Source of the DNA: Clostridiaceae bacterium
Lineage (GTDB): Bacteria; Bacillota; Clostridia; DUPQ01
NCBI GenBank assembly: GCA_012838235.1
Contig: DUPQ01000070.1
Coordinates: forward strand, 13,454-77,453
Direction: 5' to 3'
DNA: 64,000 nt
In this document: positions 6,290 to 33,476 of the stretch, piece by piece
How positions within the stretch are numbered: the first letter of the stretch is position 1
Layout of the letters: each line of letters opens with the position of its first letter
Program-made: the position numbers and the translations under genes
Notes under the pieces: generated by a model
The model's input: the letters and a program-made list of their open reading frames with translations, nothing else
Databases searched by the model: none
Told to the model about the DNA's origin: nothing

Positions 6290-6511
6290 CTTCAAATCAC
6301 CTCCACTACATAAAAAAGCAAAATATACACATTTTCGAAAGCAGTTGCTAAATTCATAAGTAGCTAATTATTCTGGGTGGGTATATACATTGGAACAGCA
6401 TATCAATGTTCACGAAATACAACTGTGTTTAATTATACTCGATATAAGCTGAGCTAACAACAGATTTGTTGCAATGATTGAACACAGTAGCACAATATTC
6501 AGGATACCTTA

Positions 6512-6625: not shown

Positions 6626-7219
6626 ATGAATGAAAGATTTATACCCACAATAATAACGAATATTAACGGTGTTGAACAGATAACCGATTCAGTCAATATT
6701 GACTTTATGAGAAGAAGAATATATTTGGTCGGTGAAATAGACAGTACATCCTCTACAGCGATGCTGTCAATGCTCGGATATTTATCAAACAAGTCAAGTG
6801 ATGATATAGAATTATTCATAAACAGCCCCGGAGGAGCTATACAGGACGGTCTTGCCATATATGACACAATCAAATACGGGGTTAATTGTGATGTTGTAAC
6901 AGTTGCGTACGGAAGAGCCGCAAGTATGGGAGCTTTTCTTTTGGCTTGCGGGAAATCAGGGAAGCGCTATGCTTTACCCAATGCCGAAATAATGATTCAT
7001 CAACCTTTGGGTAGGGTTCAAGGGCAGGCAACGGATATAATATTGGCTGCTGATAATATTAAAAAGACCAAAGAACATATCGCATCTATTTTTGCCGGAA
7101 AGTGTAATAAGCCGGTAGATATACTGCTCAAAGATATGGAGAGAGATTATGTTATGACAAGTAAGGAAGCATTGTCATACGGATTGATTGACAATATAGG
7201 GTTTCCTAAATCGGTATAG
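6626..7219 (+). CDS. clpP: ClpP-family serine protease (paralogue, first gene of the operon)
   Basis: 197 aa. IYLVGEID...FINSPGGAIQDGLAIYDTI...GRAASMGAFLLACG (Ser), EIMIHQPLG (His), ERDYVMTSKEALSYGLID (Asp). GGAAAGGA RBS present. Confidence 0.9.
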   Translation: MNERFIPTIITNINGVEQITDSVNIDFMRRRIYLVGEIDSTSSTAMLSMLGYLSNKSSDDIELFINSPGGAIQDGLAIYDTIKYGVNCDVVTVAYGRAASMGAFLLACGKSGKRYALPNAEIMIHQPLGRVQGQATDIILAADNIKKTKEHIASIFAGKCNKPVDILLKDMERDYVMTSKEALSYGLIDNIGFPKSV

Positions 7220-7235
7220 AGAGGGGGTGAAAAAA

Positions 7236-7985
7236 ATGAGGGAGACATTGCTCTACGGCCATGAAGAAATAAAGAAAGCAATAAATGAAATATGCGTGAA
7301 CAGCAAAGCATATAGTATCGGAAGAGTCCGACCGAGCAACTATATTATCCATCTTGATAGGGGTAACGGTCGTACAACTCTTGCAAGATATATTACCGAG
7401 AAGTTTTATAAACACAGTATTATAAAGTTTAGTAGCAAAGACTTGTTTTTGGAAATTGATTTTGACGGTACTTTGAAACAGCTTCAAGAGTCTTTTGGTT
7501 ATATCAGTTTAGCAGCTTGTTATGCAAATAGTTATGAAGGGGTTCTGTTTTTTGGTATTGATTCATTAGGAGATTATATACATGAAACTCAAGTGGAATT
7601 ATTTTTGGATAATATTGCAAAAGTCAGTGAAACAGCAACATTGATTTTTTATGTTCCCGAGAATCCGTCTAGAAGCATCAGTCAACTGATAGATAAGATT
7701 CGTGATGTATTGAAAGACACTGTTCTAATAGAAAAAAGCGTATACACTGCAACTGAATTGACCTTAATAGTTGAGTCGATGCTAGAAAAGAGGGGAATTG
7801 AAATTGATCAAAAAGCTCAATTTCATGAACAATTAGTTAATCTGATTGCACATATGGAACTTAAAACAATTGATGATGTAAAAGAATTATCAAAAAGAAT
7901 AATACTCTTAACGGATTATAGCTCATTAATATCGAGAGTTGGCAGTTCTCAGTTGAGAAAAATGAGACATGATGTTTTGTCTTGA
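7236..7985 (+). CDS. Degenerate SpoVK/CbxX/EccA-like AAA+ domain protein (probable pseudo-ATPase)
   Basis: The track ORF starts at GTG 7227. ATG 7236 follows GAGGGGG by 8 nt. HLDRGNGRTTLARYI resembles the Walker A GNPGTGKTTVAR but has Lys replaced by Arg. GVLFFGIDSL sits where Walker B GVLFIDEA would be, so the DE is lost. Confidence 0.65.
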   Translation: MRETLLYGHEEIKKAINEICVNSKAYSIGRVRPSNYIIHLDRGNGRTTLARYITEKFYKHSIIKFSSKDLFLEIDFDGTLKQLQESFGYISLAACYANSYEGVLFFGIDSLGDYIHETQVELFLDNIAKVSETATLIFYVPENPSRSISQLIDKIRDVLKDTVLIEKSVYTATELTLIVESMLEKRGIEIDQKAQFHEQLVNLIAHMELKTIDDVKELSKRIILLTDYSSLISRVGSSQLRKMRHDVLS

Positions 7986-8003
7986 TGTTTGGAGGAAAAT
8001 AAG

Positions 8004-9863
8004 ATGATGAACCGCTATTCAAATGAGTACGAGATAGAAAGGAGTACAAGCCGGTTGGATAAAGAATCCTCTACCTGTGGTCCTGTTGTATATTATAACG
8101 GTAAGCCATATGTATATGATGGAGAAAGCCATGTTCTCTATATCGGTAAAAGTGGTAAGGGTAAAAGTAGATGCGGAACAATCTCTACAGTGCTATCAGT
8201 GCAGCAAGCCGGTGAATCCTACATTGTATCCGATCCTAAAGGGGAGATATACAATGCAACTTATTGTTTTCTGAAAGATAAATATATTGTTCATGTAATT
8301 GATTTCAGAAATATTTTAGAAAGTGAAACTTGGAATCCTTTAGAACTTGCATACAAACTATATTCTACCGGTGATAAGCATAAGATGGAAATAGCCTATG
8401 AATTGATTGTAGAATTGGCATTTTTATTATTTGCGGATTCTGTAGTTGCTGATCCGTTTTGGGCTCAAAGTGCACGTAGCTTATTTATCGGTATTGTCTA
8501 TTTACTTTTCAGTTTTGCTCCTGCTGATCAAATAAATATGAAGTCGGTATATATGCTTGCTGTTTTAGGAGAACAAAGGTTAGGGTCAACAAACTATTTG
8601 CGTCATCTTATTGATTTGTTGCCTAAAGACACAACTGCATCGATGAACCTGAATTCGTATATGGCTGCGCCTAATGAAACAAGAGGAAGTATAAAATGTG
8701 TTTTCTTAGATGGTATGGCAATATTTGCAAGAAGCGAAGGTCTTATTGAAATGTTGAGTTCTGATGGCTTGAACATTGCAGAAATGAATGGTGAAAAACC
8801 GGTTGCAATATATATTATTTTGCCGGATGAATCAATAATCTATGATAGGCTTTGCGGTGTGTTGATTAGTCAGTTAATGAAACACTATATGCGTCTTGCG
8901 CAAGATGAATACAAAGGCAGATTGCCGATACGTATGCATCTGATACTGGAGGAGCTTGCAAGTGTGGGAAGTTCCATATCCGGGTTGCCGGACTTAATGG
9001 CTACATCTCGAAGCAGAAATATTAAAATATATATTGTGCTTCAGTCATTATCTCAGTTGGACGATTTATATGGAAAAAGTAATGCATCTACAATACTTGC
9101 CAATATCGGTATCATCATTGCCTTTAGTACTAACGATTGGAAGACCTTAGAGGAGTTATCACAAAAATGCGGAGATAAGGAAATAGATTTCGGTACAAGA
9201 ATAGTTACAACAAGCCTTATTAAGCCGGAGCAGCTTGCTGGTATGGATGTAAAGCAAGCATTGGTAATGATAGACGGAAGTGTCAAGTATATAACTAAAT
9301 TACCGTTCTATGATGAAATATTTGACTTTAGCGAGTGGAAAGAACCGGCGCAATTAAAACATAAAAAAGAAAATAATCCGAAATACTTTGATATTACTAA
9401 ATATGTTCAAGAGGGTGGTGAAACTGATTTAAGAGTACCGATGATGTTGCAGAATGAAGATATATTCAGAACTTTCAACAAGCCCAAAATTAATGAAGAA
9501 ATTAAACTTCAAGAGTTAATAACGAAGATTGATAAAGCAATTGAGAGATTAGAGGGAACAGAAGAAATAGAGGAAATAGAGGAATTAAAAGAAATAGAGA
9601 AATTAATGGAATTAGATATGCAGGAGATGATAGATGAAGAGGATATTCCTGATAGCTATGATATAATACTCTATCGTTGCAATAGTTGTGAAAATGTTAT
9701 TGCTTTGGTTGTTGCCAAAATACTGGATGTAAGTTACAATGAAGCAGTCAATAAATTAAAAGAAGAGCCTCAGATATTTAAATTTGAAACAAGAATTGAA
9801 GCTGAAAGAGCAAAAGCTGATATACGCAATGTGGGTGGGGATGTTTATAATCTATTCGATTAA
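8004..9863 (+). CDS. Soluble VirD4/TraG-like (type IV coupling protein family) P-loop ATPase with acidic linker and C-terminal ribosomal L7/L12-CTD-like domain
   Basis: Track start is TTG 7989. ATG 8004 follows GGAGGA. Walker A YIGKSGKGKSRCG. SDPKGEIY, DPFWAQSARSLF, LILEELASVG (Walker B region), IVLQSLSQLDDLYG. No N-terminal TM helices. Acidic EEIEEIEELKEIEKLMELDMQEMIDEEDIP linker. C-terminus YDIILYRCNSCENVIALVVAKILDVSYNEAVNKLKEEPQIFKFETRIEAERAKADIRNVGGDV. Confidence 0.8.
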   Translation: MMNRYSNEYEIERSTSRLDKESSTCGPVVYYNGKPYVYDGESHVLYIGKSGKGKSRCGTISTVLSVQQAGESYIVSDPKGEIYNATYCFLKDKYIVHVIDFRNILESETWNPLELAYKLYSTGDKHKMEIAYELIVELAFLLFADSVVADPFWAQSARSLFIGIVYLLFSFAPADQINMKSVYMLAVLGEQRLGSTNYLRHLIDLLPKDTTASMNLNSYMAAPNETRGSIKCVFLDGMAIFARSEGLIEMLSSDGLNIAEMNGEKPVAIYIILPDESIIYDRLCGVLISQLMKHYMRLAQDEYKGRLPIRMHLILEELASVGSSISGLPDLMATSRSRNIKIYIVLQSLSQLDDLYGKSNASTILANIGIIIAFSTNDWKTLEELSQKCGDKEIDFGTRIVTTSLIKPEQLAGMDVKQALVMIDGSVKYITKLPFYDEIFDFSEWKEPAQLKHKKENNPKYFDITKYVQEGGETDLRVPMMLQNEDIFRTFNKPKINEEIKLQELITKIDKAIERLEGTEEIEEIEELKEIEKLMELDMQEMIDEEDIPDSYDIILYRCNSCENVIALVVAKILDVSYNEAVNKLKEEPQIFKFETRIEAERAKADIRNVGGDVYNLFD

Positions 9864-9901
9864 TAATAATAAGGATAATTGTATAAAGGAGGGAATGGTT
9901 T

Positions 9902-11215
9902 ATGAGTGGCTTTACTATTGGAGAATATGAATTAGCTAGAAGGGAGAAAGAGTGGTTAAGACTGATAGAGGAAGAAAACCGCAAAAGATTAAAAGAGGCT
10001 ACCGACAGATACAGGTCATGTTTGGCTAATGTTAAATCGGTTAAACACAGAATATCTGCTCATATGGTGGAACAGGAGAAAACACTGGAAGCATATTCTT
10101 ATATGAAGCAACCGTTTGACGAGCTTAAAAGTATAAAAAAGAAATATTGCGAGAAAATTGAACGACTTTGTACTGGCAATATCCCTTCCGAGGTTGTTGA
10201 GATAAACGAGTTATCTGACAAGTTGGAGGAGGATATAGGGGTAATAAGTGCGGAGTTTTTCAAAAAAACGGAAAAAGTGGAAAAAGCAATCAGAGAATAT
10301 ATGAGAATACATGCGGACAATATAGCTACTAAGCAAGTATCAGTTGAATTGGACAGGTTTTCAAAGAGAATTAAAGAAGCTGTCAGAGTGGATTATGCCG
10401 ACTTTATTGAACCTTCTTCAAATAAGACGGAGGAGGATTTGGTAAGCAAGTTTGCTGCTGTATTGCAATTAGCGGAAGAGTGCTTCAATATTTCACATAT
10501 GGATTCCGTCAAATCCAATGTAATTAACATCGTAACAACTCTGAACTCCGTTTCCGATAAGACTTATGATGAAAAAAAGGTTGTGTTGGATCAAATTTAC
10601 AGTAAATTAGTTTCGATCAAGAAGGAGGCAATAGCAAAGAGTAAAAGGTTTGATGCACTGTACACTCAATACCTGGCGGAATGTATTTTAGCTGGCAGTA
10701 AGCCGATGGTTGATTACAGTTTTACATCACTCGAAGCTTTGTCTGACGAGCTTAAATCGGTTAAGAAGAGAGCGGAAGAAAAAGCGGAACACAAATATAT
10801 AACCGAACAGATAAATGATGTTATGCGTAGTATGGGCTACAAATCCATAGACAGTCAGCTTCTTGAGTTACCCAAGGTCGGAACAAGACAGTTGTTCAGA
10901 ATAAAGGAAAATGTTGCACTGAATGTATATGCTTCCGAGAACAACGAAGTGAATACACAGCTTATTATTATCGGGGACAGTAAGAATATAACCGAAGAAG
11001 ATTACGAACAGTTTGAAGAAGAACAAAGAAGCTTCTGCAAGCGCAATCCGGAGTTAGTAAGAAGATTATCGGAAAGAGGTATTTTGATTAAGAACGGGAA
11101 GATAAAAGAGCAAGACAAAAATGATTTGGTTAAAGAAAAAATAGTGACCGATGCGAAGAGTGAAAATAGAAAAAGTAGAAAGAGAAAAATGGAAATAAGG
11201 ATGGAGAGGGAATAA
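9902..11215 (+). CDS. Coiled-coil protein, unknown function
   Basis: 437 aa, AAGGAGGG RBS. Charged heptad-like sequence over most of its length, Lys/Arg-rich tail. No family recognised. Confidence 0.7.
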   Translation: MSGFTIGEYELARREKEWLRLIEEENRKRLKEATDRYRSCLANVKSVKHRISAHMVEQEKTLEAYSYMKQPFDELKSIKKKYCEKIERLCTGNIPSEVVEINELSDKLEEDIGVISAEFFKKTEKVEKAIREYMRIHADNIATKQVSVELDRFSKRIKEAVRVDYADFIEPSSNKTEEDLVSKFAAVLQLAEECFNISHMDSVKSNVINIVTTLNSVSDKTYDEKKVVLDQIYSKLVSIKKEAIAKSKRFDALYTQYLAECILAGSKPMVDYSFTSLEALSDELKSVKKRAEEKAEHKYITEQINDVMRSMGYKSIDSQLLELPKVGTRQLFRIKENVALNVYASENNEVNTQLIIIGDSKNITEEDYEQFEEEQRSFCKRNPELVRRLSERGILIKNGKIKEQDKNDLVKEKIVTDAKSENRKSRKRKMEIRMERE

Positions 11216-11797
11216 ATGAAAGCATGTGATATATGCGGTGCGTCAAATGATGATAATTCAAGGATATGTAATGTTTGTGGTGGAAGGTTTGCAGAAAAAT
11301 CTGTTTCTTATGTTTACTATGTAAGGTGTAACACATGCAATGCCGATATTTTAGTGCAGAATGAAAAACAGGATAAGGTTTTCTGCAAAACCTGTGATAA
11401 AGAACTTGTGATAGACGGAATAGTACATTCGGTATCCAGGAGAGAAACGATTGCAGAAGAAGAACTATATGTAGAACCTACATTGATTTTGGAAGAGGTA
11501 AAATCCAAGCATAAATTCATCATCCCCAAAGAAGGCGGAGTATTTGGCAGATACGGACAATTTGATCCACACTTTTTTCAAGATGAACGTTTTTCCAGGG
11601 TATCAAGGCGTCATATTGTAATAAGTTATGACAGTGACAGTAATAAATGGTCGGTAAAACCCAACAGTGAGACCAATGACACATATATAGACGGAAGGAC
11701 ATTTAAACCGTCAATGAACAGTATTGCCGTTGAAATCAGAGATGGTCAGATGATAGGGCTTGCCGACATATATTTTAAAGTTATAATAAACGGGTAG
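11216..11797 (+). CDS. Double zinc-ribbon plus FHA domain protein
   Basis: 193 aa. CDIC...CNVC and CNTC...CKTC pairs. FHA signature FGRYGQ (GR), SRRHIVI (SxxH), NDTYIDG, and a C-terminal beta-strand region. The start abuts the upstream stop. Confidence 0.85.
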   Translation: MKACDICGASNDDNSRICNVCGGRFAEKSVSYVYYVRCNTCNADILVQNEKQDKVFCKTCDKELVIDGIVHSVSRRETIAEEELYVEPTLILEEVKSKHKFIIPKEGGVFGRYGQFDPHFFQDERFSRVSRRHIVISYDSDSNKWSVKPNSETNDTYIDGRTFKPSMNSIAVEIRDGQMIGLADIYFKVIING

Positions 11798-11802
11798 TAC
11801 AG

Positions 11803-12384
11803 ATGAATGTTGACAGAATCGCTTTTCCAATCAAATCACTCGGACCGGGTAACCGGATAGCAATTTGGACTGCAGGATGTAAAAAGCATTGCTATAATTG
11901 CATAACGCCAGAATTGTGGGAGCCCGATCCGATGAAAGAAATATCCGTACAAAGCCTTGTGCATATTATCACAACTGTTGTTTCCGATAATGGTATTACT
12001 GTTGACGGTATTACCATAACGGGAGGAGACCCTTTTGAACAGCTGGAGGACCTGTTGAACTTACTTCCTTATGTAAAAAATATGGTAAAAGACATTTTGG
12101 TTTATACAGGTTATGAGTACTCGCAATTTAAGAAAACTCTTAGCGAGTGGAAAATAGAATGCATAGAAAGTAATATTTCAGTTTTAATTGATGGGCAATA
12201 TGTAGATAAATTGAACGATAACAAAAGTGCATTGATAGGCTCAACCAATCAGAATATTATATTTTTTGACGAGAAACTTAAATCTAAATATTCGGAATAT
12301 ATGGAAAAAGGCAGAAGCATAGAGAATATAATACACGGGAAAAAGGTTTTTTCTGTAGGTATACATAATAGAGAGGAGAAATAA
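11803..12384 (+). CDS. NrdG-like radical-SAM activating enzyme (4Fe-4S CX3CX2C)
   Basis: 193 aa. The N-terminus MNVDRIAFPIKSLGPGNRIAIWTAGCKKHCYNCITPELW matches the NrdG/PflA-type activase pattern (SxxDGPGxR..F..GCxxxCxxCxN). GGDPFEQ SAM-binding motif. Confidence 0.8.
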   Translation: MNVDRIAFPIKSLGPGNRIAIWTAGCKKHCYNCITPELWEPDPMKEISVQSLVHIITTVVSDNGITVDGITITGGDPFEQLEDLLNLLPYVKNMVKDILVYTGYEYSQFKKTLSEWKIECIESNISVLIDGQYVDKLNDNKSALIGSTNQNIIFFDEKLKSKYSEYMEKGRSIENIIHGKKVFSVGIHNREEK

Positions 12385-12385
12385 A

Positions 12386-14251
12386 TTGGATAATCAATCA
12401 GTAAAGCCCAAATGGCAAAAGGAGATAGAGCTTTTCAGAGGTATAAAAAGTGCATATATAATTGAAGGCAATATAAATGACAACTATCCTATCTGCGAAG
12501 AGGGAGGTAGTGTATATTTTGCTAACCTTGATAAGACAATAATAAAGTTGTTTGATAAGGATGTATATGATTTCTGTTTCTGTAATCCTGCGGTAGGGTT
12601 ATATGATCCTCTTAACAGAAGTTTACAAAAAGAAACCGTTGAAGCATTGATAGGCAAGTTTAATAATAATGAATTATGTTCCCGTTATGATGATATATTC
12701 GGTCATGTTTATATGATTAGAGAAATAGGTTTACTTGCCGATATTATTAAAAAAGCATTGGTAGGAACAACAAACAATAACGAAGGAGAAAGAAAACCCG
12801 TTGCAGTCGTAGTAAATTTCGCATCAAAGTTTTTTTCGGACGTATCCAATATAAATAATGACGAGATGAAGGCATTGTTGAACATATTATTAGCTTCATT
12901 GAATTCCAGATATTACCGGAACAATGTCAATACATTGATACTGGTTGTGGAGAAATTCAATGACCTTCCCACATGGTTCTACTACAATAATCCCAAGGTA
13001 AAGACCGTTACTATACCCAATCCCGACAGGTTGGTCAGAACTGTGTATATCGAGAAAGAGTTCACCGAGTTTAACAGTATAGAAAAGGCGAAGGATGTAA
13101 TTGATAAGCTTGTAAGCGCCACGGAAGGATTAAAACTGATTGAGCTTAGAGAATTAAGACAACTTCACATGAAGAATAATGATGACATATCCAATATTAA
13201 TGAAACGGTGTCTGCATATAAATATGGTATTAAGGATAATTTATGGCAAAGTTTCAATAAAGGAACAATAGAGAGACTGGAAAGATATCTTAAAGAAAGA
13301 ATAATCGGTCAGGACTATGCATTGAATAAAGCAATAACGATAATAAAGCGCGCGGTGATGGGAATGACAGGTTTGCAACATTCATCTGCAGATAATAAAC
13401 CTCGCGGTGTACTGTTCTTAGCCGGTCCTACCGGTACCGGAAAAACGGAGCTGGCAAAAGCTATAACTGTAATCCTTTTCGGTGATGAGAGAAACTGTAT
13501 AAGATTTGACATGGCTGAATTCAGTGAACCACATTCGGATCAGAAACTAATCGGTGCACCTCCTGGTTATGTTGGTTATGAAGCGGGAGGGCAGCTGACT
13601 AACGAAGTGAGAAAAAGACCATATGCAACGGTACTATTTGATGAAATGGATAAAGCATGTCCGACAATTATGGATAAATTCTTAGAAATACTGGAAGATG
13701 GCAGGTTGACAGACGGACAAGGCAATACGGTATATTTCTCAGGGACACTGATAATTTTTACCAGTAACTACGGATATACGGAAATGAGAATTGATGAAAA
13801 CGGTAACGAGAAAAGAGAATGGATTATTAAACCCGGCGAGTTACCCTATGAAGAGGTAAGGAAAAAAGTGGTTGATTCTATTAAAAAATCCAAAGCGATG
13901 AAACCGGAAATAATAAACAGGATAGGGGAACACAACATAATTGTATTTGATTTTATCAGCAAAGAGGCCGCAGAAAAGATAATTAAAAAACAGATAAAAC
14001 AAGTGAACGAAGACTGCAAGAAGCAAAAGGGAATCTCAATGCATGTTTTAGATGAATGCTATGAGTTATTAAATAAGAAATCTCGGTCCGATGATGTGAT
14101 GATTTATGGAGGCAGGGGTATAGGAACATTGGTAGAAAATGAATACATCAACCCTCTTTCCAATTATTTGTTTGATAATGATTTTACCCATGAAGTAAAA
14201 ATAACTGCATTTGTAAAAGGGGATAAACTGGACTTCAGAGAGGAGGTATAG
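12386..14251 (+). CDS. Clp/Hsp100-family AAA+ ATPase (ClpB/ClpV-like D2) with degenerate N-terminal D1-like half
   Basis: 621 aa, TTG start 7 nt after GAGAGGAG. D2: IIGQDYALNKAI...GVLFLAGPTGTGKTELAKA...LIGAPPGYVGYEAGGQLTNEVRKRPYATVLFDEMDKA...LEDGRLTDGQGNTVYFSGTLIIFTSN...YGGRGIGTLVE (sensor 2). The N-terminal half has IIEGNINDNY at the Walker A position and VVVNFASKF at the Walker B position. Confidence 0.85.
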   Translation: MDNQSVKPKWQKEIELFRGIKSAYIIEGNINDNYPICEEGGSVYFANLDKTIIKLFDKDVYDFCFCNPAVGLYDPLNRSLQKETVEALIGKFNNNELCSRYDDIFGHVYMIREIGLLADIIKKALVGTTNNNEGERKPVAVVVNFASKFFSDVSNINNDEMKALLNILLASLNSRYYRNNVNTLILVVEKFNDLPTWFYYNNPKVKTVTIPNPDRLVRTVYIEKEFTEFNSIEKAKDVIDKLVSATEGLKLIELRELRQLHMKNNDDISNINETVSAYKYGIKDNLWQSFNKGTIERLERYLKERIIGQDYALNKAITIIKRAVMGMTGLQHSSADNKPRGVLFLAGPTGTGKTELAKAITVILFGDERNCIRFDMAEFSEPHSDQKLIGAPPGYVGYEAGGQLTNEVRKRPYATVLFDEMDKACPTIMDKFLEILEDGRLTDGQGNTVYFSGTLIIFTSNYGYTEMRIDENGNEKREWIIKPGELPYEEVRKKVVDSIKKSKAMKPEIINRIGEHNIIVFDFISKEAAEKIIKKQIKQVNEDCKKQKGISMHVLDECYELLNKKSRSDDVMIYGGRGIGTLVENEYINPLSNYLFDNDFTHEVKITAFVKGDKLDFREEV

Positions 14252-14255
14252 TCAA

Positions 14256-14975
14256 GTGTTACATGTTGTTGCTATTACCGATAAAGGTCCGAGTAATGAG
14301 AAAAATGACGACTGTATATTAGTTAATAATACTGTTATAACCGAAGGATCGTTTTATGGAGAATACCGTTCCTACCTGCTTGCATCGGTTTTTGACGGTG
14401 TCGGAGGCGAGCATTACGGAGACGAGGCGGCTAAAATTGCAGCGACAGGTTTTTCAACACTTGATGTTAAAGACAGATTAAGTGAACATGTTATAGTTGA
14501 TAGGATAAAGGCGGTGAATAGGGATATTCTTGATGCACAGAGGACCGATGTTTATCACAGCAAAATGGCAACTACAATAGCAGGGGTTTATATAAGTAAT
14601 GACAGCTTCATAGCCTTTAATGTCGGTGACAGTCGGGTGTATCGCTTAAGAGGCGAGTATATGTTGCAGATATCGAAAGATCATAGATATTCGGAAAAAG
14701 TTCACACAATATACCGATACTTAGGACACCCTACCGATTACCTACCGTATACTGATATGTTTGATAACTTGTTTTTTGACAATGACATTCTTGTTATTTG
14801 TACTGATGGTATCAGCGACTTTGTTTACAACAGTGTAATCAAGCGGGAACTTATGAAAGTTGAAGACAATTATTCTTTGACGGAATGTGCAGAGGAAATA
14901 ATGAATACTGCAATTAAGGAAGGGTGTAACGATAATTTAAGTATCATATTAATAAGGAAGTGCGAAAATGACTGA
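14256..14975 (+). CDS. PP2C-family Ser/Thr phosphatase
   Basis: 239 aa, GTG start after GAGGAGG. VFDGVGGEHYGDEAA, NVGDSRVY, CTDGISD, NDNLSIILI. Confidence 0.85.
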   Translation: MLHVVAITDKGPSNEKNDDCILVNNTVITEGSFYGEYRSYLLASVFDGVGGEHYGDEAAKIAATGFSTLDVKDRLSEHVIVDRIKAVNRDILDAQRTDVYHSKMATTIAGVYISNDSFIAFNVGDSRVYRLRGEYMLQISKDHRYSEKVHTIYRYLGHPTDYLPYTDMFDNLFFDNDILVICTDGISDFVYNSVIKRELMKVEDNYSLTECAEEIMNTAIKEGCNDNLSIILIRKCEND

Positions 14976-17139
14976 TTTAGAAGTGTCTAACTGTACTAAA
15001 AAAACAAGTAGTTTAATAAATACATTAAGTTATAACGGGCCGTCTACTCCGTTAATGACCGATGTGGAATTCAAGGGAAGAAACGGAAACACCTATAAGG
15101 TCTTGTCAGACGGGTTTATTCATCAAGGCGGAGAATCTGTTTTATACAAATGTATTTGTAATAATGAGGTTTATGTTGCAAAAATACTAAATTTTTCTGT
15201 TAGCTTGAGAAATGATGAACTAAGAGGACCTGTTTTAGATTTTTTAATAAGACATTCCGGTAAAGACTCACACCTCTTGCAACTACTTGATTACGGGACA
15301 ATCAGATATAATGACGGCAGATATGATGCGCTGAGATATATTGAAATATATCCGTTCTGCCCTAAAGGTGATTTGGGAAGATTAGGGAAAATTGATTATG
15401 ATACTTTGTGTGAAAAAGTTATACCTGCTATCAACACCGCTCTTAATACTTTGCACAATGCAAATCTGGTTCATAGAGATGTAAAACCCAATAATGTGTA
15501 TGAACTGGACGGCGAAATATATCTGGGGGATTTCGGACTCTTGACAAGCAGCATCATAGAAGATGGACATAGTAATGCACATGCATACACATTAACACAA
15601 AGAGGAACTGAGGGTTATATGGCTCCAGAAATATATAAAGGTTCTGTTTATAATATTTCCGATTACTATTCGTTCGGCCAGACCATTTCCACTTTATATC
15701 ATGGAAAACATATGTATGAACACCTTATGAATAATACCGACTATATAGCAAACAGAGACATAAATCTTTCTCTTCATCGGTGTATGATGGAGGGAATTTT
15801 ATATTTAAGTTTGGAAACAAAGCACAAGGAACTAGATAAATTACTCAGAGGCTTGTTGAAGTGCAATCATGAGTTAAGGTTCGGTTATGAGCATGTTTGC
15901 AGATGGCTTACCGGAGACAAGACTCTGACCGTACCGGAAGACAGAAACATAGATCAACTGAATCCGCCATTTATGATTAATGATGTCAAATGCAGAAACA
16001 TAGAAAGCATGGTTGAACAGCTATTATTAAACTGGGATATGGCAAAGGAATACTTATACGAGGGGATAATGAAAGACTTCTTCAGTGCTCAGAATACAGA
16101 GTTAAGTATGAAAGCACTGGAAATATCAAGAAAACAGGGAAATGAATTAGTTAATAATACCGGATTAAGTCAATTTATTCATTATTTAACGGAAGGGGAA
16201 GGGATATATTGGAAAGGAAGAAAATATAACGACCATGCGGAAATTTTCAGCGATTATACAGACAATCATAGTATTAATCCCGATGTCATAGAGTTGCTTT
16301 CCTCCGGTTTTTTATCCTGGAGAATGGAAGAACTGAATAAGAAAGATAATAAATATCAAAACCAAATTGAGCTTCTTAAGAGTATTGAAAAAGAATGTTT
16401 TTGCTATAGTTCAATAGGTTATCATTATGCAAGACACAAACTAAGAGGGGAAGAAATAAGTTATTCAGATTGCCAAAATGTTGCTGAATTAATAGATTAT
16501 TTTATTGAATCATTCGGAAAAACATATTTTACTGGAGAAACATGGTTGAGAGATGATAGGTTTTATGGATTTTTAATGGCATTAGGTCATGTTAAAATTG
16601 CAACTTCTTTATTCGAGGAAGTGAGATGGGCGCAACCTGCGAATGCCATAAGAGCATTATTCGGTACTTTAGAAGTTTTGATAGAAAGAGGAAACAGCAC
16701 TTCACTTCAAACTAAAAAAGAACTTTTAAACATCTACTTGTTATATGGTCCGCGGTCCTATCTCTGCTGGATAAAAGAGAATCTTAGTTGTTACGATTTT
16801 ATGGGTATGAACGCTTTTATTTTAAAAGAGAAAATTGAGGACATTAATTTGAGCAATAAAAAAAGTCTTGCAGATATCGATTCAGCATTTAATGAATTGG
16901 CCAAAAATCTTAATCAATTTAAGCTATACTTCTGTGACAATCCTATTCTATGTAAATTAGGGATTAGTAATAAGGAAGGGAATGATATTATTTATTCAAA
17001 AAGCCTTGACGGTTATTTTTTATCCGACTTCTATGGGAATAAAGTACCGGTCGGATTTTATAAGTATATTGATGCATACAGGAGTAAAAAGAAAATAGTT
17101 AAGAATTTAAATAACTCCGAAGACCTGTTTTCCTTCTAA
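14968..17139 (+). CDS. Hanks-type Ser/Thr protein kinase with about 430-aa uncharacterised C-terminal region
   Basis: 723 aa, overlaps the PP2C gene by 8 nt. VYVAKIL (Lys), HRDVKPNNV, LGDFGL, GTEGYMAPE. No motif recognised after about residue 300. Confidence 0.9.
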   Translation: MTDLEVSNCTKKTSSLINTLSYNGPSTPLMTDVEFKGRNGNTYKVLSDGFIHQGGESVLYKCICNNEVYVAKILNFSVSLRNDELRGPVLDFLIRHSGKDSHLLQLLDYGTIRYNDGRYDALRYIEIYPFCPKGDLGRLGKIDYDTLCEKVIPAINTALNTLHNANLVHRDVKPNNVYELDGEIYLGDFGLLTSSIIEDGHSNAHAYTLTQRGTEGYMAPEIYKGSVYNISDYYSFGQTISTLYHGKHMYEHLMNNTDYIANRDINLSLHRCMMEGILYLSLETKHKELDKLLRGLLKCNHELRFGYEHVCRWLTGDKTLTVPEDRNIDQLNPPFMINDVKCRNIESMVEQLLLNWDMAKEYLYEGIMKDFFSAQNTELSMKALEISRKQGNELVNNTGLSQFIHYLTEGEGIYWKGRKYNDHAEIFSDYTDNHSINPDVIELLSSGFLSWRMEELNKKDNKYQNQIELLKSIEKECFCYSSIGYHYARHKLRGEEISYSDCQNVAELIDYFIESFGKTYFTGETWLRDDRFYGFLMALGHVKIATSLFEEVRWAQPANAIRALFGTLEVLIERGNSTSLQTKKELLNIYLLYGPRSYLCWIKENLSCYDFMGMNAFILKEKIEDINLSNKKSLADIDSAFNELAKNLNQFKLYFCDNPILCKLGISNKEGNDIIYSKSLDGYFLSDFYGNKVPVGFYKYIDAYRSKKKIVKNLNNSEDLFSF

Positions 17140-17169
17140 ACTTGCAATATGTGAAGGGTAAATATTGAA

Positions 17170-18141
17170 ATGTATAAGGATATAAATATGGCAGGAATAA
17201 AAGAATTTGACGACAATATATTACAGGAATTTGAAAAAGATGCTAAAGACATTATTTATAAGCATCTTGTTGAGTTTAAAGACCTTTCAAATAAGCTACG
17301 GGAAGAAAACGGGAAATATATACTAAAAGCAAGGGTTATAATAAGCTTTATATTCTATATACTTCTTTTATCGGTTGTAATTCTATTCGCCTTTTTCATT
17401 CCCAATATTGTATATAACCTTAACCTTGCAGAAGAGTCTTTAATAATTTTCGGTATTGTGGCACTGTACGGTTGCTTTGCATACTTTTCGGTTTTATTGA
17501 TTGAACGAATACTGAAATGCTTGCATTATTACAAAATTTTTCTTCTTACTAATGAAATAGAAAATCTAATTGAAGATATAAAGAAGACTATTGCAGGATT
17601 GCCTGCGATTAGAGAAGATATTATTGCATCAATTAAAAAGAATCAAAGGGTAACAGTAAGTTCAGTCGCACAAAACAAAAATGTTATGTATACGAATATT
17701 AATGATTTTAAAAAAAGAAAAGAACGCTTGATTTACAGCAAGCCGGGATTCCTGGACGGAGCGGAAAAATCACTTTACTGGATAGCTTGTATTACTCTTT
17801 TATCCGTATTGTCCGCAATCGGTCCGAGCATAGGTTTAATGTTTTTCCCTGAGACAGAAGACTATTCTATATTCATTTTAGTTCAGTTTTTAATGAATCA
17901 TGGAGCATTAGTGGCATTGCATATTATTTTACATAAGAAGGGAATCAGAACAAGTTTTAAAACTTTTTTAGGTTCTGTTTTATGTGCCTTGGCAGGTGCA
18001 GGCGGAGCCCTAATACTGTATGTTCTTGTTTTAATGGTGATTGGTCTGTTTAAATTTATATGGAAAATTATTGTATATTTTCTTCTTGGAGTTTTTTTTA
18101 TCGGCGGACTAATCGGCCTTCTTTGTTCCAAGGAAAAGTGA
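17170..18141 (+). CDS. Polytopic membrane protein (2 TM, cytosolic helical linker, about 4 TM)
   Basis: 323 aa. Hydrophobic stretches ARVIISFIFYILLLSVVILFAFFI, LIIFGIVALYGCFAYFSVLLI, WIACITLLSVLSAIGPSIGLMFF, LCALAGAGGALILYVLVLMVIGLF, IIVYFLLGVFFIGGLIGLL. Confidence 0.7.
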   Translation: MYKDINMAGIKEFDDNILQEFEKDAKDIIYKHLVEFKDLSNKLREENGKYILKARVIISFIFYILLLSVVILFAFFIPNIVYNLNLAEESLIIFGIVALYGCFAYFSVLLIERILKCLHYYKIFLLTNEIENLIEDIKKTIAGLPAIREDIIASIKKNQRVTVSSVAQNKNVMYTNINDFKKRKERLIYSKPGFLDGAEKSLYWIACITLLSVLSAIGPSIGLMFFPETEDYSIFILVQFLMNHGALVALHIILHKKGIRTSFKTFLGSVLCALAGAGGALILYVLVLMVIGLFKFIWKIIVYFLLGVFFIGGLIGLLCSKEK

Positions 18142-18253
18142 TATCTTTCATTGCGGATTTAAACTGTTTATAGATAACATTGTTTTATATATTGGTATTA
18201 AAGAAGGGAAGAAAGCAACAGTTTGTTAAACAGTCGTGAAGGAGGAATATAAT

Positions 18254-19135
18254 ATGTCCCAAATACAGAAAGATGCATTAATATGTTACATAGATGAGGC
18301 ATTACCGCTTATTGATACCGAAATCGATCAGTCTATGAAAATTAAGAAGGATCTTCAAGAATTATGCCGAGGGTTTTCAAAAAACTATAAATTTAATACT
18401 ATACTGGTATCTATTCCGATTTTAGTACTGATTCTGCTGGTAATTACTATGATGATTATTTCGTTGAACATTGTTGTAGGCATTGATAAACTTCTTGGTA
18501 TTCCGAATGACAGTATCTCTATTGTGGTAGATGTTCTGCCGATAATTGCAACTCATGTTTACCTCTTCCTTTTGCTGCTCAGAAGAATAGTAAAAACATC
18601 ATTTGTCATTGAAGCGCAAAATTATATTAATAAAATAGAATATATCATAAGGCTGCTGAACGAAAATACTGAACGGTTAAATGCTCTTAAAAACAGACTC
18701 AACAGCAATTGTGATCATCGTGAAAGAGAGCAAGGTTTTATAAACTATCTTAAGTTACTGGGTTATAGAGAAGGAAGTTATGATGTTAGCCAAAGTCTAT
18801 ATCAGATAAGTACCAGGCATGAAGAAATGAAGAAGAAAATGGAAAAGAGTTACTACGATATACCGATTATTATCTGCTATTTTTTTGCACTATTGTCACT
18901 TCTGCCTGCATCGGCTCATCGTACTTATATGTATTTTTTTAATAGAAATATTATTTATGACTACGATACTTACTATACAGTATTCTTTATCATTGTTTCA
19001 TTTTTATTAATTTTGGCAAATCTGATAATTACAAACAAGGAAATAAAATTGAGTATATGGACTTTTTTGATTTCAGTAGTTTTTTTGTTGGTAATCATAG
19101 CAGTACTGATATTGTATGTAGTTTTTACTCAATAA
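18254..19135 (+). CDS. Polytopic membrane protein, same architecture as the preceding gene
   Basis: The track ORF starts at GTG 18236. ATG 18254 follows AGGAGG. TM stretches ILVSIPILVLILLVITMMIISL, VDVLPIIATHVYLFLLLL, IIICYFFALLSLLPA, VFFIIVSFLLILANLII, IWTFLISVVFLLVIIAVLILYVVF, with a helical linker between the TM pairs. Confidence 0.7.
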   Translation: MSQIQKDALICYIDEALPLIDTEIDQSMKIKKDLQELCRGFSKNYKFNTILVSIPILVLILLVITMMIISLNIVVGIDKLLGIPNDSISIVVDVLPIIATHVYLFLLLLRRIVKTSFVIEAQNYINKIEYIIRLLNENTERLNALKNRLNSNCDHREREQGFINYLKLLGYREGSYDVSQSLYQISTRHEEMKKKMEKSYYDIPIIICYFFALLSLLPASAHRTYMYFFNRNIIYDYDTYYTVFFIIVSFLLILANLIITNKEIKLSIWTFLISVVFLLVIIAVLILYVVFTQ

Positions 19136-19159
19136 GAACTGATATATGGAGGTATATAG

Positions 19160-20215
19160 ATGGATAAAGACTGTGCATATAAAAGGGAAGATAATCTTGT
19201 TTATCTGTATCTGGAGATAGATAACAGAAGATGCACCGAAAAGGAAACAAAGATACTAAAACAGTATGCCGGTGTAAAATATGGAGAAACTATCTCACGG
19301 TATATAGTTATGCCCCAAGACATGCATTTAGAAGCTTTACACTATGCAATTCAAAGATTATTCGGCTGGATAGACCGATATAGGTATGCATTCAAGCTCC
19401 CCGATGACGTGTTCTATTCCATAACAAAGGATAATGTATGCAAGTGGGCTTCGCTAACGGGAGATTTGTTTGCATATATATGGAGTGACAATGAGGCAGG
19501 GTACTTTAATCCTTTATTTCAGGATAATAAAGAAGTGGATATTGAAGAATTTTTTGCACAGCAATACACAGGTCCGTATATTGCCGGTTACAGGTTTTCT
19601 AAAATGCACAGTGTAATAAAAACGGCGGTTCAGATGGAATTGGAAAAACTTTCAGATAATAATGATTCAGTTGCTGCATTTAACATTGAAAATTTAAGTA
19701 CCTTTACATCCGGTGATGTAAAAAAAGATGATTTTTTGAAAGAGAATGCAAATACACTGTTGCCATGCATGTATGTGTCTTCGGTATTGGCTGCAAAAGG
19801 TGAAAAGGTAGGAACCGATCAGGAGATTCCGAAGCACGGTAGATATTATAGAAATATTGAAGATACTGAGGTCTTACCTTTGACACATAAACTCATATAT
19901 ACCTATGGCGGTGAAAGTAAGTGGGTTGTTAATATCGTAAGGTTGAAGAATTTCAGCTCACTTATTGAAGACGGTTTGGTATGTATGAGTCGGGTAAATG
20001 ATGCGGAAAATGCTGTAAAAGAAAAACATAGACCGTTTTGTGTTTTTAAAGACGGTGCAAATGTACTGGATGATGTAGATGATTTACCCGGTTACTGCGA
20101 GTTTCTCCATGATATATTTGAAGGTTGCAATATTGAAAAGATGAAAAAAGCTTTAAAATTCGGGCGCAGAAGAGATTGGCATATTGAAGAAATGAATGAA
20201 CCGATAATATTGTAA
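19160..20215 (+). CDS. MM3350/PRiA4-ORF3-like domain protein (paralogue 1)
   Basis: 351 aa. ISRYIVMPQDMHLEALHYAIQRLFGW matches the family pattern IWRR..VP...TL..LH..IQ...GW. YTYGGESKWVVNIV corresponds to Y.YDFGD.W.H.I. PFCVFKDGANVLDDVDDLPGYCEFL corresponds to P.C..G..A.PPED.GG..GY..FL. Confidence 0.65.
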   Translation: MDKDCAYKREDNLVYLYLEIDNRRCTEKETKILKQYAGVKYGETISRYIVMPQDMHLEALHYAIQRLFGWIDRYRYAFKLPDDVFYSITKDNVCKWASLTGDLFAYIWSDNEAGYFNPLFQDNKEVDIEEFFAQQYTGPYIAGYRFSKMHSVIKTAVQMELEKLSDNNDSVAAFNIENLSTFTSGDVKKDDFLKENANTLLPCMYVSSVLAAKGEKVGTDQEIPKHGRYYRNIEDTEVLPLTHKLIYTYGGESKWVVNIVRLKNFSSLIEDGLVCMSRVNDAENAVKEKHRPFCVFKDGANVLDDVDDLPGYCEFLHDIFEGCNIEKMKKALKFGRRRDWHIEEMNEPIIL

Positions 20216-20252
20216 TTTAAGTGGATAAAATAAATATATAAGGAGTCTTGTT

Positions 20253-21260
20253 ATGTATAACGAATTGAGAATGAAAAAAAGCCGTAATCCTATATATCTT
20301 CATCTGGAACTGGATACAAAATATTGTTCCAATGAAGACTTACATACACTGAAAAAATATGCCTGCATAAAATATGGTTCTACTATATCCAGAGATGTTT
20401 TAGTGCCTCACGATATAACTATCAGAGCATTACATTATACAATTATGAAACTCTTCGGATGGATGGGAAGACATGATTATACTATGAAGCTTCCCAGTCA
20501 AATATATGATAATGTGACCGAAACTGATTCGAATATAATAATCAGTTTGATGGGGGTTTTACTCAAATGTCCCGATGAGGTGAAAATCGATGATGATTTC
20601 CTTGTATCATTTGATGATACTGGTCCAAAAGACTTTGAGAACAGGTTTTCCGAGTATTACACGGGACCATATGCAAATTTTGCAAGTATAGAGGATTACA
20701 GCACATTATCGGGTATACTTACATTGTGTGATTCAATAAAAGATGAAATAATGGGAGTTGATTGTAACAAATTGTTGGGAAGACTTAAGGTGTCCTCCAT
20801 ATTGACATATGAAGGTGATAATATAAGCGGGAATGTTGAATATTTAAAAGGTGACTCAATAAAAGAATACAATATGAGAAGGGAACATTGCAAAGAGTGC
20901 GAAATGCAACCGGATGTTTTGCCTTTGACATATAAGCTGGTTTATTTGTATGACAGCGAAAGAAAATGGACAGTTAATATTACAATGCCTAAGGACTTTT
21001 CAGTATTGATTAATGATAGAGGTGTTTCAAAAGAAGATATAGATTTTGCAAAGAATAAAGTTTTGGACAGTTATAAGCCTTACTGTATTTTCCGTGACGG
21101 AGCAAATGTTATGGAGGATGTAGCCAACCTGCCCGGATTCTGTGATTTCTTAAGAGTTGTTTTTGAGAGAAGCGATACGAATAAAAAGAAAACTGCACTT
21201 AAATATGCCCGTAAAAGAGATTGGTATCCGGATGAAATCGGTGACTGTATAATGTTTTAG
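20253..21260 (+). CDS. MM3350/PRiA4-ORF3-like domain protein (paralogue 2)
   Basis: 335 aa, collinear with the previous protein (ISRDVLVPHDITIRALHYTIMKLFGW; YLYDSERKWTVNIT; PYCIFRDGANVMEDVANLPGFCDFL). Last gene of the operon. Confidence 0.65.
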   Translation: MYNELRMKKSRNPIYLHLELDTKYCSNEDLHTLKKYACIKYGSTISRDVLVPHDITIRALHYTIMKLFGWMGRHDYTMKLPSQIYDNVTETDSNIIISLMGVLLKCPDEVKIDDDFLVSFDDTGPKDFENRFSEYYTGPYANFASIEDYSTLSGILTLCDSIKDEIMGVDCNKLLGRLKVSSILTYEGDNISGNVEYLKGDSIKEYNMRREHCKECEMQPDVLPLTYKLVYLYDSERKWTVNITMPKDFSVLINDRGVSKEDIDFAKNKVLDSYKPYCIFRDGANVMEDVANLPGFCDFLRVVFERSDTNKKKTALKYARKRDWYPDEIGDCIMF

Positions 21261-28465: not shown

Positions 28466-28481
28466 AAAATTGACCTCCTGC

Positions 28482-28516
28482 ATGATATAAGTTCCAATTA
28501 TTAGAACTTATATCAT
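28482..28516 (-). promoter_or_regulatory. 13-bp perfect inverted repeat immediately upstream of the ATPase RBS
   Basis: ATGATATAAGTTC-(9 nt)-GAACTTATATCAT. Candidate operator or 5-prime UTR hairpin. Confidence 0.45.
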
Positions 28517-33269: not shown

Positions 33270-33366
33270 TCTTAAGCGGGCATTCTTAATTTAAAAGGTA
33301 TACAAAAACAACTTATATTCATGTCAGTGCAGAGTATGCATTTTTTATCACTTAAAGAATACCGAA

Positions 33367-33445
33367 ATGCAACGAATAGCATATATTTGCTTTAAAAGTG
33401 CAACGCAAATGCAACGAATAATTATTTGTTGCATATTTGTTGCAT
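33367..33445. repeat. Cluster of five ATGCAAC(G/A)A motifs (three direct, two inverted) in the promoter region of the downstream gene
   Basis: ATGCAACGAATA at 33367 and 33409, TGCAACGCAA at 33400, TTGTTGCAT at about 33426 and 33437. Confidence 0.5.
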
Positions 33446-33476
33446 TATTTATATAATACTTCATAGAAAGTGTCGC

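Follow-up and report, generated by a model that had tools for sequence, protein, structure and literature searches.

A 13-gene array in an uncultured Clostridia species appears to join three independently inherited modules, one of them a conserved Hsp100-radical SAM core

The window analysed here is a 64,000-nucleotide stretch of the contig DUPQ01000070.1 (Clostridiaceae bacterium), and its subject is an array of 13 consecutive open reading frames (ORFs) on the + strand at window positions 6626-21260. ORF calling reproduced every stop coordinate that the initial annotation had given for these co-directional ORFs (7219, 7985, 9863, 11215, 11797, 12384, 14251, 14975, 17139, 18141, 19135, 20215 and 21260); three starts differ, by the choice of an alternative start codon alone (gene 2, 7227 GTG vs 7236; gene 3, 7989 TTG vs 8004; gene 11, 18236 GTG vs 18254). 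The 13 are real genes, and each one with homologues belongs to a conserved family. Nearly all domain calls of that annotation were upheld by Pfam and NCBIfam (ClpP, an ATPase like type IV coupling proteins (T4CP), Zn-ribbon-FHA, NrdG-like, ClpB-like, PP2C, Hanks kinase and two PRiA4_ORF3 proteins). The gene order is identical in other samples of the same uncultured Clostridia species and is stable within it; in all the evidence gathered, the full array is restricted to that one species lineage. Its reading as a single 13-gene system found no support, since the set does not co-occur outside this species. Comparison of the gene neighbourhoods indicates a lineage-specific juxtaposition of three modules that are independently inherited elsewhere: a mobile trio (genes 1-3, module A), a core (genes 4-11, module B) and a tandem MM3350 pair (genes 12-13, module C).

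The core comprises the following genes, the loci of other species being designated L001 and onwards.

Gene 4, 9902-11215, + strand: novel coiled-coil protein; family alignments give a near-invariant N-terminus, a long helical half, an alpha/beta C-domain and a basic tail.
Gene 5, 11216-11797, + strand: double zinc-ribbon plus FHA phosphothreonine reader (Pfam FHA, 34 bits; DZR).
Gene 6, 11803-12384, + strand: small glycyl-radical-activase-like radical S-adenosylmethionine (SAM) enzyme of the NrdG/PflA type (Pfam Fer4_12, 100 bits).
Gene 7, 12386-14251, + strand: two-tier Hsp100/Clp-type AAA+ protein (Pfam AAA_2, 160 bits, on residues 339-514 only; ClpB_D2-small).
Gene 8, 14256-14975, + strand: PP2C Ser/Thr phosphatase (Pfam PP2C_2 and PP2C; NCBIfam Stp1, 110 bits, below the cut-off).
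Gene 9, 14968-17139, + strand: cytosolic Hanks kinase with a novel C-terminal domain of ~400 residues (Pfam Pkinase, 76 bits).
Gene 10, 17170-18141, + strand: polytopic membrane protein, ~5 predicted transmembrane (TM) segments; in one cluster with the gene that follows the kinase in L006 and L026.
Gene 11, 18236-19135, + strand: paralogue of gene 10, ~5 predicted TM segments; same BLASTP cluster as gene 10, L006 and L026.

Core loci were collected from the neighbourhoods of gene 7 homologues and by a species-wide profile scan (~35 loci from other species in total), and every window protein was compared with 36 loci in a tblastn matrix. In this matrix ~28 of the 31 species loci contain genes 4, 5, 6, 7, 8 and 9 in unchanged order, while genes 1, 2, 3, 12 and 13 and the flanking genes of the window gave no match in any core locus. 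Genes 10 and 11 gave no tblastn match there either; their counterparts were recovered by clustering. The block that recurs around gene 7 homologues (unknown, FHA, radical SAM, AAA+, PP2C, kinase, unknown) keeps its order even in members with 27% and 35% N-domain identity to gene 7. The gene after the kinase encodes a polytopic membrane protein in almost all core loci. In 12 loci it belongs to a ~460-residue family, and in L006 and L026 to a ~296-residue family that clusters with genes 10 and 11 of the window; hhalign shows the two families to be homologous in their first ~170 residues (95.7%, E 1e-8). Gene 11 is taken as a duplication of gene 10 in the lineage of the window. Because the ordered block recurs and is followed by a membrane gene, genes 4-11 (seven genes, the last one duplicated) are regarded as the conserved unit of the window.

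Alternatively, all 13 genes could form one integrated unfoldase/protease or export machine, in which ClpP and the T4CP-like ATPase cooperate with the phospho-controlled ClpB-like ATPase and with the membrane and MM3350 proteins. The genes are co-directional with gaps of 0-94 nucleotides, a scan found no terminator-like site at any junction, and the array is stable across samples of the species; the counts of promoter and terminator patterns in the array equal the shuffled expectation and so have no bearing on transcript structure. Trio and core also lie ~14 kb apart on one 32-kb contig of Ruminococcus sp. UBA3665, which is the sole hint of their linkage, one trio locus (L040) adjoins a vWA-PP2C-kinase triad, and distant core variants adjoin an FtsK-like ATPase. 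However, the FtsK similarity is confined to the generic ATPase domain, the companions of the trio change from locus to locus, no ClpP, gene 2, T4CP-like or MM3350 gene was found within ~10 kb of the ~35 core loci, and core genes are absent from all six trio loci (L037-L042). Furthermore, gene 7 carries no IGF, LGF or VGF tripeptide for ClpP docking: its segment between sensor 1 and KPE..NR (52-56 residues) is ClpB-like and holds the TSN-LG sensor motif only. A tie between the trio's ClpP and the core's unfoldase thus has nothing to rest on, and the ClpP/unfoldase partnership implied by the initial annotation is unsupported. An integrated machine is thus considered distinctly improbable.

The protein of gene 4 has no Pfam or PDB relatives; a full-length PDB profile search returned coiled-coil noise only, and a search with its C-domain returned nothing. 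This C-domain (~150 residues) bears invariant F378-C379 and R392-G393, and hhalign links the protein at 97.7-99.9% to a counterpart in every Firmicute variant, including those missed by BLAST. A single-sequence AlphaFold2 model had a pLDDT of 51 and was left out of the fold search. The N-terminus (window 9902-9916) begins with MSG in the window; the form MSGPK is nearly universal from Clostridia to Rhizobium and Caballeronia (L031, L043-L046, L055), and MSS is found in Roseburia and Coprococcus. The MSGPK terminus could serve as a recognition tag for the AAA+ pore or as a modification site. On ~15 contigs of up to 192 kb from one lineage of the species, gene calling splits gene 4 into two fragments (235 residues plus 169 or 210 residues), the result either of a frameshift in a decaying copy or of an assembly artefact. 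In the gene 5 product, the FHA residues GR...S..H...N.T are conserved across 25 sequences.

For gene 6 the best NCBIfam family is NrdG (99.8 bits vs an equivalog cut-off of 126.1), and the protein aligns to the pyruvate formate-lyase activating enzyme (PFL-AE) structure 3c8f over GPGxR...GCxxxCxxC. The activase motifs are present and invariant in 25 sequences (GPGNR...GCKKHCYNC with its CX3CX2C spacing, GGDP and SVGIH), a family-specific C-terminal extension of ~40 residues ends in SVGIH, and identity is 30-52% across all variants, Rhizobium included. Pfam and NCBIfam scans of the window and of the variant loci found no glycyl radical enzyme family (NrdD/PflB type) among the operon partners. 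The earlier view of gene 6 as an orphan NrdG-type activase is borne out, with the family confirmed by Fer4_12 and no cognate glycyl radical enzyme nearby. A housekeeping NrdG was also considered for gene 6 and rejected because of the sub-cut-off score, the lack of an NrdD neighbour and the constant link to gene 7.

Gene 7 was modelled with AlphaFold2 from 40 sequences (pLDDT 75.7). In Foldseek searches 650-710 columns of the model were aligned with the ClpC, ClpC1, ClpB and ClpA chains (E ~1e-25), and because the alignment runs along double-ring Clp chains, the protein is predicted to be a double-ring Hsp100 with D1 and D2. Its D1 has an invariant IIEGNIND.YP in place of the Walker A motif GxxGxGK[ST] and keeps an AAA-type IPNPD...R motif; this ring appears to be inactive ("dead"). 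In D2 the Walker A and B motifs, the GYVGY pore loop and the sensor motifs are intact. Outside the D2 half (~234-617) neither Pfam nor NCBIfam gave a match, so neither a Clp N-domain nor an M-domain was detected. A profile search with the D1-like N-domain found no PDB sequence relative, and the NCBIfam ClpB model scores 257.6 bits against a cut-off of 1232.

The phosphatase of gene 8 conserves the PP2C motifs DGVGG, GDSR, DG..D and DN. The kinase of gene 9 has intact HRD, DFG and APE motifs, conserved T13 and T19 at its N-terminus and no predicted TM segment; its C-terminal domain found no PDB relatives in a profile search. With the catalytic motifs of genes 6, 7 (D2), 8 and 9 intact, these enzymes look active. 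The membrane protein of gene 10 is a candidate effector or anchor.

Homologues of gene 7 are represented by more than 120 full-length proteins at ~50% identity in metagenome-assembled genomes (MAGs) of Clostridia. A family-specific profile of the gene 7 N-domain, scanned over one genome per species (185,579 species), retrieved 31 loci, most of them in uncultured Ruminococcus, Lachnospiraceae and Oscillospiraceae; others come from single Fusobacterium, Bacilli and Muribaculaceae MAGs, with distant matches in Roseburia, Coprococcus and Spiroplasma. At 50% identity, 373 clusters among 1.84 billion representatives carry the N-domain. It was also matched in nine plasmid or chromid records, Proteobacteria included, and no relative of the core was found on viral contigs or in phage records.

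In the cultured rumen bacterium Aristaeella lactis WTE2008 (L051, NZ_CP069422.1) the core lies on a 44-kb plasmid record together with integrases, a WYL regulator, ClpX and an ion transporter. The series reads DUF4011-SF1 helicase-REase_MTES_1575, kinase, gene 4 homologue, FHA, radical SAM, AAA+, PP2C, DUF6273, kinase. On pRLgr12_2 of Rhizobium leguminosarum, the block consists of the AAA+ protein, the radical SAM enzyme, a 2,086-residue fusion of kinase, DUF4011, SF1 helicase and REase_MTES_1575, and then a 452-residue protein; Caballeronia sp. M1242 has the same four genes, also plasmid-borne. The kinase-helicase-nuclease fusion scores 462 bits with PDC-S37, 217 with Hhe and 157 with MkoA in PADLOC. 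The last proteobacterial gene starts with MSGPKV, its C-domain motifs match those of gene 4 (LGYEV/HGYNV, VGF/VGIGF, EFC...L...G), and its product is a probable gene 4 homologue. A deeper kernel would thus consist of the gene 7-type AAA+ protein, the radical SAM enzyme, the Hanks kinase and, probably, the MSGPK protein. FHA and PP2C would be Firmicute additions, the terminal component being either a membrane protein or a helicase-nuclease.

Several core loci show further peculiarities. One or two extra kinase paralogues (556-661 residues) lie upstream of gene 4 in L009, L010 and L016. In L001, L002, L007, L008, L017 and L020 a SbcD-like gene directly follows the membrane gene, with a SbcC-like ATPase next in at least L001, L002 and L007; this pair could reflect shared synteny or a recurrent partner. 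The core is rearranged in Roseburia (L032) and Coprococcus (L033) to radical SAM, kinase, gene-4-like, FHA and AAA+, no PP2C being found by BLAST; a 1,236-1,270-residue protein with a Zn-ribbon and an FtsK/SpoIIIE-like ATPase is encoded upstream, and a YARHG or response-regulator gene lies downstream. In the Fusobacterium MAG (L025) a 1,109-residue kinase is followed by a soluble TPR plus DUF4037 protein and then by DUF4125, with no membrane protein, and the TPR plus DUF4037 protein could represent a third kind of terminal part. The giant ORFs that precede the core in L007 and L012 were considered as DUF4011 helicases and rejected; they encode LRR or Big_2 surface proteins.

A reading of the array as three modules, with the core as a phospho-gated module of the conflict or abortive-infection type, is considered somewhat probable. 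The phosphothreonine-gated conflict system first proposed for all 13 genes thus survives as the best reading of the core and fails for the array as a whole. This reading is suggested by a conserved kernel with swapped terminal parts, by the patchy distribution and varied contexts, by plasmid carriage and by the defence-like helicase-nuclease partner. Plasmid or integrase-bearing contexts occur in several hosts, and the chromosomal contexts differ between core loci.

The comparisons show the modularity, the gene order kept between loci, the domain identities and the intact catalytic motifs; the defence role is inferred, as are the trigger, the chemistry, the client and the sequence of steps that follow. 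The kinase could sense a trigger (infection or damage) through its novel C-terminal domain and autophosphorylate the conserved N-terminal threonines. The phosphothreonine would be read by the Zn-ribbon-FHA protein, and the switch could be reset by PP2C. The AAA+ ring, thus licensed, would engage a client protein and deliver it to the radical SAM enzyme, which would abstract a hydrogen atom from it. As client the gene 4 protein is the likeliest, with its invariant N-terminal tag, Cys379 and Gly393 as candidates. The output could be realized via a swappable effector: the membrane protein in Clostridia, and the DUF4011-SF1 helicase-REase nuclease in A. lactis, Rhizobium and Caballeronia. In its strongest form the proposal makes the kernel a new immune or stress machine that uses protein-radical chemistry, in which a kinase-triggered unfoldase presents gene 4 or an invader protein to the activase, a backbone radical activates or destroys the target, and the effectors are interchangeable. 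This form is held to be unlikely.

Several observations weigh against a conflict role within a three-module array. Only ~5-7 of 125 pooled flanking ORFs of the core loci match any PADLOC model at 1e-10, two of them ThiF-like, and many neighbours are ordinary chromosomal genes (BacA, GGDEF, SbcCD, glycosidases, surface proteins), so that a location in defence islands is not demonstrable for the Clostridial core. No toxin or nuclease is recognisable in the Clostridial version, whose membrane protein is a presumed effector. In the conserved columns of the partners the canonical glycyl-radical motif RVxG[FWY] was not seen. The match of the proteobacterial MSGPKV protein to gene 4 is statistically insecure (hhalign E ~0.002 vs 0.17-0.25 for controls, probability 15-16%). 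No direct link to phage was found. Finally, the modules may still be functionally linked in this organism, given how tightly the 13 genes are packed and how stable the array is within the species.

Alternatively, the core could be a physiological signalling, proteostasis or redox module of anaerobes, serving for instance envelope or membrane-protein quality control, with the switch controlling an Hsp100 remodeller and the activase installing a radical on a partner enzyme. The mostly ordinary flanks with few PADLOC matches agree with this, as do the absence from viral contigs and phage records and the lack of a toxin domain in the Clostridial form. Strict anaerobes predominate among the hosts, which suits glycyl-radical chemistry, and related Ruminococcus loci are syntenic, with BacA upstream and a SbcCD-like pair downstream. 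A housekeeping role of this kind nevertheless fits poorly with a presence in 31 of 185,579 species representatives scattered across phyla, with neighbours that differ between lineages, and with plasmid carriage in A. lactis, Rhizobium and Caballeronia. Furthermore, the genes are operonic with a helicase-REase protein matching Hhe, PDC-S37 and MkoA, and the aerobic Rhizobium host argues against an obligately O2-labile glycyl radical role. A physiological module is regarded as rather unlikely, yet as a serious competitor of the conflict reading.

The trio, the first of the other two modules, is encoded by the following genes.

Gene 1, 6626-7219, + strand: ClpP paralogue, first gene of the trio (Pfam CLP_protease, 201 bits).
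Gene 2, 7227-7985, + strand: trio-specific protein without a Pfam match; its family is present in 6/6 trio loci at 27-36% identity.
Gene 3, 7989-9863, + strand: soluble VirD4/TraG T4CP-like ATPase with a C-terminal tail (Pfam T4SS-DNA_transf, 141 bits; TraG-D_C, 78 bits).

The gene 1 product has the CLP_protease fold family and, in its translation, the Ser/His/Asp motifs GRAASMG, MIHQP and ERDY. Its NCBIfam ClpP score is 185 against a cut-off of 308.6, and it falls under every ClpP equivalog cut-off, so it is regarded as a paralogue and not as the housekeeping ClpP. It is 40-56% identical to the ClpP of L037-L042. Gene 2 probably encodes a degenerate AAA+-like adaptor without the Walker A lysine. 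The degenerate Walker-A-like motif GNG(R/Q)T speaks for the AAA+ assignment made at first, but the AAA+ matches in PDB profile searches are all sub-significant (EccA1, E=0.17). An N-terminal PIGL, recalling the ClpP-docking IGL/IGF, is present in 5 of the 7 gene 2 family members (L037-L041) and is lacking in the window protein and in L042.

In gene 3, the T4CP ATPase domain is accompanied by a Walker A motif, GKSGKGKS, in the translation, and the best NCBIfam model is conju_CD1115 (213.7 bits, below the cut-off of 250). No N-terminal membrane anchor is predicted, the sole hydrophobic segment being marginal and internal (135-153, score 1.85), and no ClpP-docking tripeptide was found. The gene is 40-50% identical between the window and the trio loci. 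Of the L7/L12-like C-terminal tail previously ascribed to this ATPase, nothing was detected in the window protein at Pfam E<=0.01, nor in a BLASTP comparison with E. coli L7/L12 (an approximate query sequence); the tail is seen in the family, since many of the more than 370 homologues have a precomputed PF00542 (ribosomal L12 C-terminal-like) match.

The order ClpP, gene 2 homologue, T4CP-like ATPase is kept in six neighbourhoods from different lineages (L037-L042), and their other members vary. FtsK, JAB, ThiF, a transglutaminase, an M50-like protein and a sigma factor accompany the trio in L037 and L038; ThiF, Band_7 and a sigma factor in L039; and vWA-PP2C-kinase, a second HerA-like ATPase, a transglutaminase and three SPASM radical SAM genes in L040. 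In L041 the neighbours are a HerA-like ATPase, a colicin-DNase/WHH toxin, a relaxase and a NikA/MobC-like protein, and in L042 a divergent NB-ARC STAND protein, an M50-like protein, a relaxase and MobC. None of these companions was found in the window. An ORF of 67-83 residues usually precedes the trio, four of these sharing a GILIA.K motif; the window copy has no such ORF. Taken by itself, the ClpP/degenerate AAA-like/soluble T4CP-like trio appears to be a conserved mobile module that has no published description. In the strongest form of the proposal above, held to be unlikely, an FtsK/HerA-superfamily ring in this trio would serve ClpP in place of a Clp ATPase.

Module C is formed by two genes.

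Gene 12, 19160-20215, + strand: PRiA4_ORF3/MM3350-like protein (Pfam PF07929, 42.4 bits vs a cut-off of 26.6).
Gene 13, 20253-21260, + strand: PRiA4_ORF3/MM3350-like paralogue, 40% identical to gene 12 (PF07929, 49.1 bits vs 26.6).

Both are absent from all core and trio loci. A metagenome scan found four loci, mostly on short contigs, and a tandem pair recurs on one of these unrelated short contigs (L047).

The surroundings of the array have features of their own. The G+C content steps near 34 kb, from 34-37% in the half that holds the array (window 1-34000) to 42-45% in the other (34000-64000), and the low-GC half looks like acquired DNA; no tRNA gene was found in the window. An AbiLi-like ATPase gene (27365-28483, - strand; PADLOC AbiLi, 99 bits; Pfam AAA_21) lies ~6 kb from the array. 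A 172-residue ORF directly downstream of it (26854-27372, - strand) could be an AbiLii partner, which would place a known abortive-infection system near the array. An 871-residue protein that joins a Trans_reg_C DNA-binding domain at its N-terminus to a STAND/NB-ARC-like NTPase is encoded divergently from gene 1 (3680-6295, - strand) and has no PADLOC match; a relationship to the divergent NB-ARC gene upstream of the L042 trio was considered and rejected, there being no BLAST similarity. At 32331-34394 and 34481-36019 (- strand) are found a Fic/DOC protein, an HATPase_c_4 plus helix-turn-helix protein with weak PADLOC matches to prokaryotic Argonaute-associated (Aga) models, and a 512-residue protein with weak ZorA and DruC matches. 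A secreted fn3 plus Peptidase_C39-like protein (1260-2474, - strand) and a 334-residue protein (2683-3687, - strand; precomputed Pfam Rv3785_N in other samples) correspond to the secreted-peptidase neighbours of the initial annotation and are absent from all related loci. The AbiLi-like, Fic and STAND genes and the low GC provide circumstantial support for a conflict role.

To our knowledge, the activase-type radical SAM enzymes described so far all serve metabolic glycyl radical enzymes, to which they are dedicated. Should the core function in defence or stress, gene 6 would be the first activase-type radical SAM enzyme to work with an Hsp100 unfoldase under Ser/Thr phosphorylation control, and radical SAM chemistry in immunity would be extended beyond nucleotide modification of the viperin type. 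Roles would also be gained for four unannotated families: the MSGPK coiled-coil protein, the degenerate D1 domain, the kinase C-terminal domain and the membrane protein. Since the kernel is present in the cultured A. lactis WTE2008, R. leguminosarum and Caballeronia sp. M1242, it is directly testable. What makes the locus interesting is first the conserved core with its cross-phylum kernel and second the ClpP/T4CP-like trio, rather than the combination of 13 genes. Operon-like packing in one genome can join independently mobile modules, and comparative genomics should fix the limits of a candidate system before it receives a name.

As regards systems already described, PADLOC-DB v2.0.0 (2023) gave no system-specific match for the 12 of 13 proteins scanned (gene 11 was left out), and nothing at all for genes 1, 2, 4, 6, 8, 10, 12 and 13. 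Generic matches link gene 9 to the mad6, PD-T4-6, MkoA and Stk2 kinase models, and the D2 of gene 7 to PDC-M37B (99 bits) and DolB (79 bits). Neither core nor trio has a name in PADLOC v2 (2023), NCBIfam release 20 (2026), Pfam or full-text literature searches, and a conflict-systems paper published in eLife in 2020 does not contain this gene set (PMC7159879). In agreement with the initial annotation, no profile library, defence model or literature search assigned the cluster to a described system.

The threonine-phosphorylation pathway of the type VI secretion system (T6SS) includes the PpkA kinase, the PppA PP2C phosphatase and Fha1, together with the ClpB-like ClpV/TssH. Like the core, it unites a Hanks kinase, PP2C, an FHA reader and a Clp/Hsp100 ATPase in one operon, and gene 7 scores 201 bits with TssH. 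Unlike it, the core is accompanied by no T6SS structural genes (TssA-M, Hcp, VgrG) among the 13 proteins or the scanned flanking ORFs, its kinase is cytosolic with no TM or periplasmic sensor, and gene 7 has a putatively dead D1, no ClpV N-domain and a score far from the TssH cut-off (885 bits). The radical SAM enzyme and the gene 4 protein, obligatory partners in the core, have no place in the T6SS pathway.

It was also proposed that the array is an export machine, that is, a novel secretion apparatus of the type IV (T4SS), T6SS or type VII (T7SS) kind with the MM3350 proteins or the secreted C39-like peptidase as clients. The list of parts is suggestive: an FtsK/HerA-superfamily ATPase, the EccA1 hint for gene 2, FHA, kinase and PP2C beside a ClpV-like ATPase, polytopic membrane proteins, and a secreted fn3 plus Peptidase_C39-like protein upstream. 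However, no VirB4/B6, TssB/C, Hcp, VgrG, WXG100, EssB or EccC-type multi-ATPase was found in the 13 proteins or the flanks, the T4CP-like protein lacks a predicted N-terminal anchor, and most core loci have no FtsK or T4CP gene. In the MM3350 proteins no hydrophobic segment that might serve as a signal peptide is predicted, and they are never found with the core. Compared with the T7SS in particular, gene 3 is single-domain and not predicted to be anchored, WXG100 and EssB matches are missing, and the similarity of gene 2 to EccA1 is not significant. A secretion apparatus is therefore very unlikely, and the export proposal found no support.

Gene 3 shares its ATPase fold families with the CD1115-family VirD4-like conjugal proteins (plasmid homologues are 25-28% identical), and the L041 and L042 trios carry relaxase/MobC. 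It differs from that family in its sub-cut-off score, in the constant presence of a ClpP paralogue and a degenerate AAA-like protein ahead of it, and in the L12-like tail of many members. The window has no relaxase or MobC homologue, and no mating-pair genes were found among its Pfam-scanned ORFs.

With NrdG/PflA activases gene 6 shares the N-terminal GPGxR...GCxxxCxxC signature, the GGD/E SAM motif and the alignment to PFL-AE structures; unlike them, it stays below the NrdG cut-off, has the ~40-residue SVGIH extension, lies near no glycyl radical enzyme in any locus and is always paired with an Hsp100-like ATPase. The D2 of gene 7 matches DolB of Dodola and PDC-M37B; the match is limited to the AAA_2 domain, and no DolA or PDC-M37A counterpart was found among the scanned window proteins (gene 11 left out).

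The kernel loci of A. lactis, Rhizobium and Caballeronia resemble Hhe, PDC-S37 and Mokosh MkoA in an operonic protein with DUF4011, AAA_11/12 and REase_MTES_1575. The Clostridial loci, the window included, differ in having a membrane protein in the terminal position and no helicase-nuclease. The PADLOC entries for these proteins are modelled as single proteins or as other systems, and no model matches gene 4 or 6. As in TerY-P, PD-T4-6, Stk2, MADS mad6 and KKP, a Ser/Thr kinase with PP2C could act in the core as the switch of a conflict system. The matches to these modules are confined to the generic kinase domain, and FHA, AAA+, radical SAM and gene 4 are foreign to them; no TerY/vWA protein occurs in the window array, the vWA-PP2C-kinase triad being found only beside the trio in L040. 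The pairing of an Hsp100 with an activase-type radical SAM enzyme thus found no precedent in these comparisons, and the core would belong to the kinase/phosphatase-regulated type of multi-gene conflict module.

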